Positions 100-15,694 of a stretch of DNA of 32,000 bases are shown piece by piece; position 1 is the first letter of the stretch, and each line of letters opens with the position of its first letter. The notes under the pieces are model-generated. The model worked only from the letters and a program-made list of their open reading frames with translations, had not been told where the DNA came from and did not search any database. The position numbers were made by a program, and so were the translations under genes. The stretch comes from an uncultured Opitutales bacterium (GTDB lineage Bacteria; Verrucomicrobiota; Verrucomicrobiia; Opitutales; Intestinicryptomonadaceae). Location: NCBI GenBank assembly GCA_934613415.1, contig CAKTSY010000001.1, forward strand, positions 210,001-242,000, in the 5' to 3' direction.

Positions 100-735
100 A
101 TGTCCTACTATAATCGGCAAATGTTTTTTAAATATGCAAAGGTAATACTCGTAATATTGGCGGCTGTGGCTGTTCAATATTTTTGGGGCTTTGCGCAAAT
201 TGTAGAGGCTTTCGAAGAATTTGCAAAAAACAATTCCGCCACATACGTTTTTTTGCCCGTTATGGGCATAGGGTGCGCCGTGGGCGTACCGCTTTCGTTT
301 TGCTATGTGTTTGCCGCAAGCGCATATACGTTGCCAAAAGCTTTTTTGCTTTGCATTATAGGGCTTTTTACAAGCTCGCTTATAGGTTTTTTTATAGGCA
401 ACGTGTTTTCGGAACTGCCCTATGTAAAAAAACTTAAAAACGAATTTTTGCCAAAGCATGCCGAAGACGCCATATATTTTAAACTTAATTTCTTTATAAG
501 GGCAATTCCCGGGGTTCCCTATTTTGCGCAAAACCTAATATTGGCTTCGCTTTCAAAAAAAGTGCAACTTTTTACATATTTGCTTATAAATATTTGCGTG
601 CAAGGGCTTATTGCGCTTGCAATGATTTTGATTTTCAACGCGGCTTTTAGGGAAAAGTTTTTAATTGCCATAACCCTTGTTATTGCGCTAATTGCAACCT
701 ATGTAGTTTTGAAAAAAAGATGCCCAAGAATGTAA
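100..735 (+). CDS. TVP38/TMEM64-type (DedA superfamily, SNARE-associated/VTT domain) integral membrane protein
   Basis: 211 aa with an ATG start and multiple hydrophobic helices. The motif 'FFIRAIPGVPYFAQNLILASLSKKVQLFTYLL' matches the R-x-IP-x-x-P...N...G/A pattern of DedA/TVP38 proteins, and 'GFFIGNVF' sits upstream of it. The 3' end overlaps the next gene by 16 nt. Confidence 0.6.
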   Translation: MSYYNRQMFFKYAKVILVILAAVAVQYFWGFAQIVEAFEEFAKNNSATYVFLPVMGIGCAVGVPLSFCYVFAASAYTLPKAFLLCIIGLFTSSLIGFFIGNVFSELPYVKKLKNEFLPKHAEDAIYFKLNFFIRAIPGVPYFAQNLILASLSKKVQLFTYLLINICVQGLIALAMILIFNAAFREKFLIAITLVIALIATYVVLKKRCPRM

Positions 736-1502
736 AAGAATTTTTTTGCTCGCTTTGGTTTTGCATGGGCTTTGTAGTTTTCGGCATTTTGGCAATACCC
801 GCCGTTTTGGCCTCGGTTTTGGCGTATATTATTTTGTTTTTCGACAAAGGTTTGCGCTGCAGGGCAATTTCAGCAATAATACAAGCTGCAATGAGGCTGT
901 ATGTATTTTTTGCGCTGCCTAAAATGGGCGGGTATACCGTAAAAATTTGCGGCAAAGAAAACCTTAACAAAGCCGATATTTATGTGGCAAACCACACCTC
1001 CTTTATAGACCCCTTTATAATGCTGGCTCTAATAGGCGATGCGGGAATTTTGGTAAAGACAAAATACAAAAGAAACCCCTTCATTTTGATTTTCTTTTAC
1101 ATATTCAATTTCGTGTCGATTTCTAAAGACGACATTTTGTCGGTTCAAAACTCCTATAGAAAATGCGCCGAAGTTTTAAACGAAAACCACCGCCTTATAA
1201 TATTCCCCGAAGGCCAACGCAGCCGCAGCTGCCAGCTTGCAGACTTTAAAAAATCGGCATTTAAGCTTGCAAAAGAGCTAAATAAAACCGTAGCAACCTG
1301 CACAATTCGCTTTAGTGACAAATTTATGGCAAAGGGGCAAAAAAGTTTCCGCCCAAAGTTTATGCAAACGCTTACAATTTGCATAGGCAAACCCATAAGC
1401 CCCCAAAACTGCCGCAACGCCGACGCAATTTCGGCAAAAGCCTACAACGAAATTTACCGCAACATAAAAAGCATAGACGCAAATTTAAAAAACACAAAAT
1501 AA
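720..1502 (+). CDS. PlsC-family 1-acyl-sn-glycerol-3-phosphate / lysophospholipid acyltransferase with N-terminal membrane anchor
   Basis: 260 aa. It has the HX4D catalytic motif 'NHTSFID' and the second acyltransferase block 'IFPEGQRSRS'. Two N-terminal hydrophobic segments are present. Confidence 0.8.
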   Translation: MPKNVKEFFCSLWFCMGFVVFGILAIPAVLASVLAYIILFFDKGLRCRAISAIIQAAMRLYVFFALPKMGGYTVKICGKENLNKADIYVANHTSFIDPFIMLALIGDAGILVKTKYKRNPFILIFFYIFNFVSISKDDILSVQNSYRKCAEVLNENHRLIIFPEGQRSRSCQLADFKKSAFKLAKELNKTVATCTIRFSDKFMAKGQKSFRPKFMQTLTICIGKPISPQNCRNADAISAKAYNEIYRNIKSIDANLKNTK

Positions 1503-14608: not shown

Positions 14609-15694
14609 CAAGTCGGCATATGTTTGGCTTTGCGGCTTTTGTGGCGAATTTGAATAATCGGCATCGGTAAACGCTTTTGTGTTGTTCCATTCCAATAAAA
14701 CGCTGCCCCACGAAAGCCCAACGCCAAAAGCGCACAAAACAACCTTCATTTTGGGCTTTAGCCTTTTATTTAAAACGGCGTCGCACAATGCAATGCCAAC
14801 GCTAGAGCCCCCGCAGTTGCCTATGTCGTGCATTTTATAGTAAACTTTGTCGGGACTTATTCCAAGGCGTTTTGCCGCTCCGGAAACTATTGTCTGTCCA
14901 GCCTGATGGAATACAAACAAATCGATGTCGGAAACCTTAAGCGAATTTTTTTCGAGCAAAGCCGAAACGGAATCTGCAATATTTTTGTAGGCAAAGGCAA
15001 AAATTTTAAAACCATCTACAAACATATCAACGGGGCGGCGCACATTCATATTTTCGTCGCAAGTTTCGGCATAGTCGGCGGGATATTTAGGCGGATTTCG
15101 CATGCTAAAGGCGCGGCATAGAATCGAGCTATACCCTTCGCCGTCGCTGCCAAAATTAAAGTCTAGCAATTCGTCTTTGTCGCTTTTTTCAAGCAAAAAT
15201 GCGCACGCGCCGTCGCCGAACAATGCAACCGAGCTTTTATCGTTTTTGTTCAAAAGCCTTGTGGGGGTGTCGCCCGTAAGCACAAGCGCCTTGTTTGCAA
15301 AGGGCGACGCCACCCACATTGCGGCGTTCGCCAAAGAATATATAAATTGCGAGCACCCCAAATTTATGTCGTAGGCTGCAACCTTTTTCGGCAAATTAAG
15401 CCTTTCTTGCAAAATACAAGCGGTAGTCGGCATAATATAGTCTGGCGTTTGGGTTGCAAAAGTAAGCAAGTCTACCGAATTTAAATCCAAAGCAGTATTG
15501 TCTATTATAAGCTTTGCCGCATTATACGCAAAGTCTGAAGCGCATTCATTTGGAGAGGCAACCCTACGCTCTAAAATTCCGCTAAACTTTTCTATTTTTG
15601 CAACAATGTCGGCACCAAAACGTTCGACAAGCTCTTTGTTGCCGAGGATGTTTTTTGCAAGCGAATATGCAATGGCTGTAATTTTTACATTCAA
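14603..15694 (-). CDS. beta-ketoacyl-ACP synthase III (FabH-like)
   Basis: 363 aa. The KAS III triad is present as 'INLGCSQFIY' (Cys), 'FVFHQAG' (His) and 'GNCGGSS' (Asn). The start is a TTG. About 30 aa of non-FabH C-terminal tail are present. The 3' end overlaps the convergent KS-CLF gene by 6 nt. Confidence 0.8.
   Translation of the reverse strand: MNVKITAIAYSLAKNILGNKELVERFGADIVAKIEKFSGILERRVASPNECASDFAYNAAKLIIDNTALDLNSVDLLTFATQTPDYIMPTTACILQERLNLPKKVAAYDINLGCSQFIYSLANAAMWVASPFANKALVLTGDTPTRLLNKNDKSSVALFGDGACAFLLEKSDKDELLDFNFGSDGEGYSSILCRAFSMRNPPKYPADYAETCDENMNVRRPVDMFVDGFKIFAFAYKNIADSVSALLEKNSLKVSDIDLFVFHQAGQTIVSGAAKRLGISPDKVYYKMHDIGNCGGSSVGIALCDAVLNKRLKPKMKVVLCAFGVGLSWGSVLLEWNNTKAFTDADYSNSPQKPQSQTYADLL

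Follow-up and report, generated by a model that had tools for sequence, protein, structure and literature searches.

A putative polyenoyl lipid locus in gut Opitutales

We examined a 32,000-nt stretch of DNA from an uncultured Opitutales bacterium (contig CAKTSY010000001.1, positions 210,001 to 242,000; hereafter the window), in which sixteen genes at nt 100-15694 form a locus for lipid assembly on acyl carrier proteins (ACPs). Judged from its sequence, the locus appears to work like the polyene synthase of the granadaene (cyl) operon, feeding an anchoring and export route of the aryl-polyene (APE) type. We lean towards seeing in it a conserved envelope-lipid pathway of gut Opitutales, most likely one that places a non-aryl conjugated polyenoyl lipid in the outer membrane; this exported product would most likely be a glycolipid or a phospholipid. 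Granadaene is the non-aryl ornithine rhamno-polyene pigment and toxin of Group B Streptococcus (GBS; S. agalactiae).

Window proteins were searched against Pfam and NCBIfam, and open reading frames (ORFs) were checked by coordinates and strands. All sixteen ORFs of the initial annotation were present at nt 100-15694 with the coordinates and strands given there, the Pfam and NCBIfam matches confirmed the families it had named, and the overlaps and gaps that it described within the gene units agreed with the ORF coordinates. Its assignments of chain-length factors (CLFs), a LolA-like protein and an MMPL exporter likewise held in the profile searches. Its central claim, an ACP-dependent, fatty acid synthase (FAS)-like polyene or lipid assembly line joined to an APE-type envelope module, was borne out by BLASTP matches to ape proteins and by the presence of PF13723 in one of the two long ketosynthases (KSs), KSa.

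Two predicted condensing enzymes of different ancestry

The locus encodes two iterative type II KS-CLF condensing enzymes that differ in ancestry; each set has an ACP to itself, and the two have a common ketoreductase (KR) and dehydratase (DH). The first set, comprising ACP1, a CylF-type homologue of the glycine-cleavage T-protein (the GcvT-like protein), the KR, the DH and the ketosynthase KSb, is homologous to the granadaene synthase, and the second, ACP2 and KSa, to ApeE and to ApeO plus ApeC. KSa (nt 9046-11196, + strand; 716 aa; Pfam ketoacyl-synt and PF13723) and KSb (nt 12254-14608, + strand; 784 aa) each have a full catalytic triad in the N-terminal half (C154/H285/H319 and C159/H301/H325, respectively) followed by a KS-like C-terminal half missing the nucleophilic Cys, and thus are KS-CLF fusions. 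Among solved structures, chains B and C of PDB 9s5h, a KS/KS-like heterodimer, were the best match for both halves of both fusions.

The C-terminal half of KSa matches PF13723, the ApeC family, over residues 429-560 (25.7 bits against a cutoff of 25), and ApeC itself also matches this family. The best E. coli match of KSa is ApeO (34% identity, E 7e-45, 156 bits, versus 101 for FabF). The phylogenetic link between KSa and ApeO had only 17% bootstrap support, and KSa formed a clade, at 100% bootstrap, with KS-CLF fusions of verrucomicrobial clusters that encode an aromatic ammonia-lyase. For comparisons with cyl, the reference was a Bacillus wiedmannii plasmid operon annotated cylF and not the GBS proteins themselves. 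KSb is collinear with the 818-aa KS encoded after cylF in this operon (27.6% identity over 776 aa, 281 bits), scored 149 bits with FabF and 137 with ApeO, and repeated its cyl-type preference with the Priestia and Rahnella proteins. When active-site columns were compared, KSb and the long cyl KS were found to have a common live-KS/dead-KS architecture.

The two carrier proteins, ACP1 (AcpC-like; nt 4504-4776, - strand; PP-binding E 4e-8, GLDSLD motif) and ACP2 (ApeE-like; nt 8789-9049, + strand; top match NF006617), are both PP-binding proteins with a DS motif. ACP1 scored 66 bits with the Bacillus cyl ACP, 40 with ApeE and 35 with AcpP; ACP2, with 54 bits (40% identity) to ApeE versus 44 to the cyl ACP, was the only protein of the compared set to prefer an Ape protein. 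The single KR and the single DH both scored higher with their cyl-operon homologues than with Ape proteins. For the KR, a CylG-like 3-oxoacyl-ACP reductase (FabG; nt 2706-3440, - strand; TIGR01830 E 1e-80), the scores were 200 bits (44% identity) with the Bacillus cyl-operon KR, 164 with E. coli FabG and 110 (31% identity) with ApeQ. For the DH, a CylZ-like 3-hydroxyacyl-ACP dehydratase of the FabZ type (nt 1508-1933, + strand; Pfam FabA E 1e-19), they were 85 bits (37% identity) with the Bacillus cyl-operon DH versus 37 with ApeI; the protein has the HFPGQPIMPG and EALAQ motifs and weak ApeI-like and ApeI/ApeP-like matches. The listed FabZ ORF opens at a TTG at nt 1379, and the true start is likely the ATG at nt 1508, giving 141 aa, as chosen by gene callers in L003, a 590-kb scaffold covering the window.

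The last gene, convergent with the KSb gene, encodes a FabH-type ketoacyl-ACP synthase III (KAS III; nt 14603-15694, - strand) with the triad C114/H263/N293 and 31% identity to E. coli FabH. Its score clears the threshold for ordinary KAS III enzymes (NF006829, 253.9 versus 249), and it reaches only 35 of the 550 bits of the DarB model. FabH genes recur at cluster borders, lying after KSb in the window and in L050, and beside FabG or the GcvT-like gene in L010, L011, L034 and L049; this recurrence in two layouts argues for FabH being a member of the pathway, probably as the priming condensing enzyme.

A candidate APE-type anchoring and export route

Direct BLASTP of the window proteins against the ape cluster of E. 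coli CFT073 linked several genes to lipid anchoring. The PlsC-type (LPLAT) acyltransferase (nt 720-1502, + strand; Pfam Acyltransferase E 4e-20) is similar to ApeD (24% identity, E 9e-13). A GT2 glycosyltransferase (nt 4850-5563, + strand; Pfam Glycos_transf_2 E 8e-13), whose listed ORF opens at a TTG at nt 4808 and for which gene callers take the ATG at nt 4850, aligns with residues 8-237 of ApeJ (29% identity, E 2e-28), and an LpxL-family acyltransferase (nt 7873-8742, + strand; Pfam Lip_A_acyltrans E 8e-15) with residues 299-550 (24% identity, E 7e-13). By these alignments, two separate genes here correspond to the bifunctional ApeJ, and the exporter gene lies between them. The LpxL-like gene also adjoins the ammonia-lyase gene in the verrucomicrobial clusters L045, L046 and L048, an arrangement conserved among them. 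In the APE lipid, which has a glycerol-phosphate-GalNAc backbone, ApeD places a non-aryl conjugated fatty acid and ApeJ esterifies a second chain to the sugar (bioRxiv 10.1101/2020.12.19.423268). This structure offers a template for the roles of the PlsC-type, GT2 and LpxL-like proteins in the Opitutales locus, and it means that APE machinery already makes non-aryl polyenes.

Between the two ApeJ-like genes lies the gene for an MMPL/RND-type inner-membrane exporter (nt 5568-7886, + strand; Pfam MMPL E 3e-17) with HAE3/HpnN-type matches; the window protein resembles ApeM weakly (E 6e-4), and its orthologues do so more clearly (E 4e-18). The putative periplasmic lipid carrier, a LolA-like protein with a signal peptide (nt 11193-11753, + strand), is recognised by Pfam only (31.4 bits versus a cutoff of 23.6) and scores 46.5 against the cutoff of 125 of the flexirubin LolA2 model. 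It is followed by a gene for a small secreted beta-rich protein of 164 aa that has an N-terminal signal sequence and belongs to no family (nt 11757-12251, + strand); L044-L050 likewise encode a protein of about this size after LolA. By position only, this protein is the counterpart of the LolB-like ApeN. The searches gave no support for homology to ApeN/DUF3261: Pfam returned nothing even at E<1, and hhalign with 7- and 20-sequence profiles gave a non-significant E of ~0.1. The protein had no NCBIfam match and only two close relatives in a word-based homologue search, and its AlphaFold2 model (pLDDT 46) was unusable. The BLASTP comparison of the window with the ape cluster gave no counterpart of ApeH, ApeB, ApeG, ApeA or ApeN, and likewise no link to ApeL.

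The cluster is syntenic across gut Opitutales

The closest genomes were those of uncultured gut Opitutales (Verrucomicrobiota), one metagenome-assembled genome (MAG) being 98% identical and a Hadza gut MAG 90%. Among about 30 further genomes at species level are those of Candidatus Merdousia, 'Coraliomargarita sp. CAG:312' and the isolate Puniceicoccaceae bacterium Marseille-Q1082 (L017). In tblastn searches with the window proteins, the layout was syntenic in ~30 species of Opitutales whose proteins are 25-60% identical in amino-acid sequence. It runs GT2-MMPL-LpxL-ACP2-KSa-LolA-small protein-KSb, with ACP1-GcvT-like-(thioesterase)-FabG pointing the other way in a divergent unit and a flavoprotein-FabZ-PlsC-DedA unit mostly near the rest of the cluster. 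Because the same layout is kept despite this divergence, the locus is a conserved, selected gene cluster and no chance neighbourhood.

The window holds a trimmed form of the cluster. In 13 related Opitutales loci (including L009, L014-L016, L019, L021 and L023) a 4HBT thioesterase that is ApeK-like and cyl-thioesterase-like lies between the GcvT-like gene and FabG (position ~11075-11500), two genes that abut in the window; the earlier statement that the locus has no thioesterase is correct for this window and does not extend to those loci. In eight loci (L017, at 1-1986 on the - strand, L008, L009, L015, L016, L018, L019 and L023) the KSb orthologue carries an in-frame N-terminal B12-binding radical-SAM domain that is absent from the window KSb. 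A separate 461-aa radical-SAM gene that seemed to lie between LolA and KSb in some loci proved to be an artefact of region cutting and is this same domain of the KSb orthologue.

Two further proteins are encoded in the first gene unit of the window. The flavodoxin-fold, FMN reductase-like protein resembles an Isf-type Fe-S flavoprotein (nt 1930-2634, + strand; Pfam FMN_red E 3e-18, also Flavodoxin_2): it has the Cys motif C47-x2-C50-x2-C53-x5-C59 (CxxCxxCx5C), aligns with the Fe-S flavoprotein 7d38 and is possibly a reductase. The DedA/VTT-like polytopic membrane protein (nt 100-735, + strand; 211 aa), for which gene callers place the start later than in the listed ORF, matches Pfam VTT_dom weakly (E 1.7e-6, 29 bits, below the gathering score of 33.9) and has no NCBIfam match; its orthologues sit in the same gene unit in most Opitutales loci.

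KSa-like KS-CLF fusions are common in Verrucomicrobiota. The uncharacterised APE/flexirubin-like clusters L045, L046 and L048, which come from Verrucomicrobiae (L046 and L048) and Verrucomicrobiales, have in common with the window an orthologous KS-CLF, an ACP, LpxL-like and LolA-like proteins, the latter with its small protein, PlsC, DH, the flavoprotein and an ACP-GcvT-like-(4HBT)-KR operon, in which the 4HBT gene is present in L046 and L048. They differ in having an aromatic ammonia-lyase, a B12-radical-SAM enzyme (in L046 and L048 a separate gene adjoining that for the ammonia-lyase), a FeeM-aminotransferase fusion, a polysaccharide deacetylase, an AAT-family protein, FabD, and a stand-alone KS with a short CLF, and in having no KSb-type protein, GT2, MMPL or FabH in the stretches examined; the gut Opitutales have these last four instead of the ammonia-lyase set. 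Since the GcvT-like protein and the flavoprotein are conserved in these relatives encoding an aromatic ammonia-lyase, the family they belong to is not intrinsically non-aryl, and the two proteins are long-standing members of it that can coexist with an aryl route. We also noted that L046 and L048 have an ammonia-lyase and, like the window, no adenylate-forming ligase that we could find.

A CylF-type protein next to the ACP

The GcvT-like protein (nt 3440-4507, - strand; 355 aa; Pfam GCV_T E 1e-25) appears to be a CylF-type T-protein homologue. In tblastn searches of plasmids it matched genes annotated cylF or 'aminomethyltransferase family' in plasmids of the Bacillus cereus group, with further homologues in Priestia megaterium and Rahnella sikkimica, and BLASTP with Bacillus CylF gave E 5e-25 at a low identity of 22-25%. 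In a neighbour-joining tree, the synthase-linked GcvT-like proteins grouped with Bacillus CylF and the Priestia and Rahnella proteins apart from B. subtilis GcvT (85% bootstrap; the outgroup consisted of two canonical T-proteins). The GcvT-like profile matches the T-protein of Thermotoga maritima (E 5e-40), in which we take the folate/aminomethyl site to comprise SHMG 49-52, D96, Y100, N112, Y188, E195 and R227 (1WOO). In the GcvT-like proteins the residues at positions 50-52, 100, 112, 188, 195 and 227 are replaced, in a pattern partly shared across the synthase-linked clade, and D96 is kept as D or E; E195Q and the loss of R227 are widely shared in the synthase-linked clade, including CylF.

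The GcvT-like gene is translationally coupled to ACP1 and, in ~40 loci from 5 phyla, always adjoins an ACP gene, with the KR gene also beside it. In P0013, an NCBI MAG protein of 428 aa, an ACP1-type carrier with an intact DSL motif is naturally fused in frame to the N-terminus of the GcvT/CylF-like protein. On the grounds of this coupling, invariant adjacency and fusion, we suggest that the CylF-like protein probably acts on an ACP1-bound species. A word-indexed search found 14 close relatives, and remote copies (26-28% identity) occur in minimal KS/CLF-ACP-GcvT-like-KR-DH modules of Planctomycetaceae, a Deltaproteobacterium and Polyangia; a KR-ACP-DH-GcvT-like-KS/CLF core was found in these three groups and in Priestia and Rahnella.

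CylF, an aminomethyltransferase homologue, counts with cylG, acpC, cylZ, cylH/I, cylE and cylA among the universally conserved core genes of cyl operons (PMC6985545). Its proposed roles are methylation (PMC3674703) and the supply of ammonia for ornithine (PMC6985545). The retention of a CylF-type gene without CylE in Opitutales, Priestia and the minimal modules argues against the ornithine-supply hypothesis. More speculatively, CylF-type homologues may be integral ACP-directed parts of FAS-like polyene synthases across phyla (Bacillota, Gammaproteobacteria, Myxococcota, Planctomycetota and Verrucomicrobiota) instead of suppliers of ammonia or ornithine, with abundant gut Opitutales displaying a granadaene-like, potentially membrane-active polyene on the outer membrane via the APE-type anchoring and export route; we put this forward as a tentative proposal. 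Folate-pathway inhibitors raise granadaene pigment production in GBS, an effect called unexplained in a review (PMC4315905), and it may be related to the folate-enzyme fold of CylF.

Relation to the cyl, APE and flexirubin systems

In the cyl operon, a non-aryl polyene arises since an enoyl reductase is absent (PMC3674703). The Opitutales locus likewise has no recognisable enoyl reductase and has counterparts of the KR (CylG), AcpC, the CylZ dehydratase, CylF and the ~800-aa KS plus dead-KS (CylH/I); FabG, ACP1, FabZ, the GcvT-like protein and KSb each find their best match in a cyl-type context, which follows non-aryl conjugated polyene logic. In both the Bacillus and the Priestia operon, a TE-MAT-KR-ACP-DH stretch stands ahead of the GcvT-like gene, and an ~810-aa KS/dead-KS gene comes directly after the latter; the Bacillus operon also has a GNAT-type CylE-like gene and a second glycosyltransferase gene before cylF, and rhamnose genes after the KS. 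Compared with the cyl system, the Opitutales locus has no CylE, CylA/B, CylX, CylD, CylK or rhamnose genes, and adds the ApeO/ApeC-type KS-CLF with its own ACP, the APE-type anchoring and export genes and FabH. The 1038-aa GNAT-type CylE-like query from Bacillus was unmatched in the window and the Opitutales loci; because there is no CylE, these clusters should have no ornithine step, and no ornithine or other amino-acid amide is expected. No ABC genes occur at nt 100-15694, the sole ABC match of the window being an unrelated FecCD-linked ATPase (nt 17949-18806). The hosts differ as well, a diderm here versus the Gram-positive groups surveyed in PMC6985545. A cyl-type core also occurs in a Gram-negative plasmid, that of Rahnella sikkimica (NZ_CP019063.1, 359596-380609; L054), where acpS, KR, DH, ACP, aminomethyltransferase-family, KS and CLF-like genes are accompanied by an ABC system and a LolA-like 'outer membrane lipoprotein-sorting protein', an arrangement in which a Gram-negative bacterium appears to have solved the export of a cyl-type product a second time and independently.

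With the APE clusters of E. coli CFT073 and Xenorhabdus doucetiae, the locus has in common the ApeD-, ApeJ-, ApeE- and ApeO/ApeC-like genes, two ACPs and, by Pfam assignment, an MMPL exporter and a LolA-like carrier, the latter with a small secreted protein encoded after it; APE lipids too hold a non-aryl conjugated fatty acid. It differs from them in having no ApeH, ApeB, ApeG or ApeA and, in the window, no ApeK; in its fused KS and CLF; in its one DH as opposed to the ApeI/ApeP pair, with KR and DH nearer to cyl than to ApeQ and ApeI/ApeP; and in the addition of the CylF-type protein, the Fe-S flavoprotein, the DedA-like protein and FabH. Flexirubin/dialkylresorcinol loci of Bacteroidota (DarA/DarB) resemble it in general type II polyene and LolA logic. 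Assignment to that system was rejected, since the NCBIfam scores fell far below cutoff for FlxB (203 versus 340), LolA2 (46.5 versus 125) and DarB (35 versus 550) and the closest genomes are Opitutales; the locus has no ammonia-lyase (the TAL FlxA), and its organism is not one of the Bacteroidota.

Strictly, then, the locus belongs to neither the cyl nor the APE family, having neither the CylE and CylA/B of the former nor the aryl loading of the latter. The initial annotation had counted the GcvT-like protein and the flavoprotein among several foreign parts, a view that is contradicted by the cyl-like best matches of the GcvT-like protein, ACP1, FabG, FabZ and KSb and, for the flavoprotein, by its conservation, like that of the GcvT-like protein, in the verrucomicrobial ammonia-lyase clusters. 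It had also not recognised the architecture as that of a described system; this overlooked the cyl operons, which are described relatives, and stands for the exact combination, which was not found in the searchable literature. There we found no paper on a cyl-type synthase with APE-type anchoring and export that goes without CylE, an ABC exporter and aryl loading, nor any on cyl-like clusters in Verrucomicrobia or on a link of CylF/GcvT to APE, CLF or ketosynthase clusters. That the granadaene and APE pathways are related is already recognised in published work, where it is also reported that antiSMASH labels non-aryl polyene clusters 'aryl polyene' and that it has called APE clusters in Opitutales bins.

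Proposed pathway and alternative readings

In the pathway that we propose, FabH would prime synthesis from an acyl-CoA, the KS-CLFs would do so by decarboxylation of malonyl-ACP, or both would contribute. Repeated KS, KR and DH cycles with no enoyl reduction would then give conjugated polyenoyl-ACPs, with the CylF-like protein acting as an ACP1-directed accessory of the synthase. By analogy with the APE lipid, the ApeD-like PlsC would load one chain onto a lysophospholipid, the GT2 enzyme would attach a sugar and the LpxL-like enzyme would esterify a second chain to it, and the MMPL exporter, the LolA-like protein and the small secreted protein would carry the lipid to the outer membrane. The recurrent linkage of a KAS III to the cluster at varying positions fits the suggestion of the initial annotation that the product is possibly non-aryl and primed from an acyl-CoA, and the aryl-starter genes are indeed absent.

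Several points weigh against this pathway. All its chemical steps are inferred from homology. KSa is orthologous, at the 100% bootstrap given above, to KS-CLFs of ammonia-lyase clusters, and an aryl starter could come from elsewhere. The Fe-S flavoprotein could reduce enoyl intermediates, shortening or abolishing the polyene. The cluster encodes no malonyl transferase, phosphopantetheinyl transferase or thioesterase, and these activities must be borrowed. MMPL is weakly similar to ApeM, the LolA-like match is weak too and the 164-aa protein is without a link to ApeN, and the relation of the GcvT-like protein to CylF consists of 22-25% identity, gene context and a tree with two canonical T-protein outgroups.

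The first of the alternatives, which we consider unlikely, is that the locus encodes an aryl-polyene pathway of the flexirubin or APE type after all, with an aryl acid of dietary origin (hydroxybenzoate or hydroxycinnamate) or from a distant gene entering as an aryl-CoA through the FabH-like KAS III or an unrecognised loader. Orthologues of KSa, ACP2, the LpxL-like and LolA-like proteins, PlsC, DH, the flavoprotein, KR, the GcvT-like protein and ACP1 all occur in the ammonia-lyase clusters L046 and L048, and it is with the KS-CLFs of these clusters that KSa forms its clade. These two clusters are also without an adenylating ligase, as are the gut Opitutales loci, which makes an unfamiliar mode of aryl loading conceivable, and the E. 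coli APE pathway likewise draws its 4-hydroxybenzoic acid starter from primary metabolism, outside its cluster (PMC8253772). Against this, family scans and query searches found no aromatic ammonia-lyase, ApeH-type ligase, chorismate enzyme, methyltransferase or FabI/K/V-type enoyl reductase in the 32-kb window, as the initial annotation had stated for its locus. Queries with ApeH, a verrucomicrobial ammonia-lyase, a CylE-like protein, the FeeM-aminotransferase, AAT and FabD matched nothing in the window and 37 Opitutales loci (638 kb), loci in which the ammonia-lyase, ligase, chorismate enzyme and methyltransferase were not found either. Starter genes just upstream of nt 1, which would make the locus a canonical APE cluster, were ruled out with L003, where the 6.7 kb upstream hold pentapeptide-repeat, GFO/IDH/MocA, LacI, rhamnosidase, acyltransferase and EPSPS-CMK genes unrelated to the pathway. 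Moreover, the best-matching characterised synthase set, cyl, yields a non-aryl polyene, and FabH passes the ordinary KAS III cutoff and has no tie to enzymes of the aryl-specific or DarB type.

A second alternative keeps the acyl chain and gives up the polyene: the product would be a partly or fully reduced hydroxy-acyl glycolipid, with the Fe-S flavoprotein as the missing enoyl reductase. The position of the flavoprotein gene speaks for this proposal, since it overlaps the dehydratase gene by 4 nt, indicating translational coupling, and its orthologues keep their place by the DH gene both in Opitutales and in L046 and L048, carrying an SCP2 lipid-binding extension in the latter two clusters. 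The producers, moreover, are gut anaerobes, to which an antioxidant pigment is less obviously useful. However, the flavoprotein has no homology to FabI, FabK, FabL or FabV, L049 and L050 keep the rest of the cluster with no flavoprotein unit nearby, and both characterised relatives, cyl and ape, are defined by absent enoyl reduction (PMC8253772, PMC3674703); we regard this explanation as quite improbable.

That the genes are ordinary housekeeping FAS and lipopolysaccharide (LPS) lipid genes that merely lie side by side, as membership of FabG, FabZ, FabH and the ACPs in generic FAS families and a second DH and KS pair beside a Kdo transferase gene elsewhere in the window might suggest, is very hard to credit, given dead-domain KS-CLF fusions, a CylF-type protein, a split ApeJ, LolA and MMPL, all foreign to FAS, window proteins that reach none of the NCBIfam equivalog cutoffs for FabG, FabZ, FabF and ACP, and synteny of the entire set across strongly diverged species.

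Other genes and features of the window

The rest of the window encodes, among others, a deaminase, an ABC importer, a hemolysin-III protein, a GH2 enzyme, FolE2, the second DH/KS pair and WaaA. A tightly packed run of four genes (nt 24877-28878, + strand) begins with a FolE2-type GTP cyclohydrolase and continues with the separate FabZ/FabA-like dehydratase (nt 25858-26319, + strand), a FabF/B-like KS with a full catalytic triad (nt 26319-27584, + strand) and the Kdo transferase WaaA (nt 27589-28878, + strand), placing this DH and KS pair beside an LPS core gene. Just before it, a 606-aa protein (nt 23048-24868, + strand) has no Pfam or NCBIfam match; in Marseille-Q1082 a copy with 67% identity is the immediate neighbour of the cluster (L017, 13415-15166). 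The match of a 131-aa ORF (nt 31584-31979, - strand) to PilT-family ATPases is confined to their C-terminal third; this ORF is possibly a fragment, or its listed form may open at an internal start. GC content is even throughout the window. Scans of the window for promoter and terminator consensus sequences gave counts equal to the shuffled expectation and were uninformative, and Rfam gave zero matches.

Implications

The most interesting thread is the conserved CylF-type protein; otherwise, the locus combines known pathways. The CylF-type gene is kept where CylE is absent, is coupled to an ACP gene and is once fused to it, and also occurs in the minimal KS-ACP-CylF-KR-DH modules of several phyla. 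This pattern points to a role inside the synthase, and the minimal modules would be simple systems in which to ask about it. For genome annotation, 'arylpolyene' calls in Verrucomicrobia need not imply an aryl product.

As a virulence lipid, granadaene is haemolytic and cytotoxic, and both oxidative-stress tolerance and biofilms are shaped by APE lipids. If a conserved hybrid of the granadaene and APE pathways does exist in common gut Verrucomicrobia, its product would represent a new class of host-facing outer-membrane lipid.

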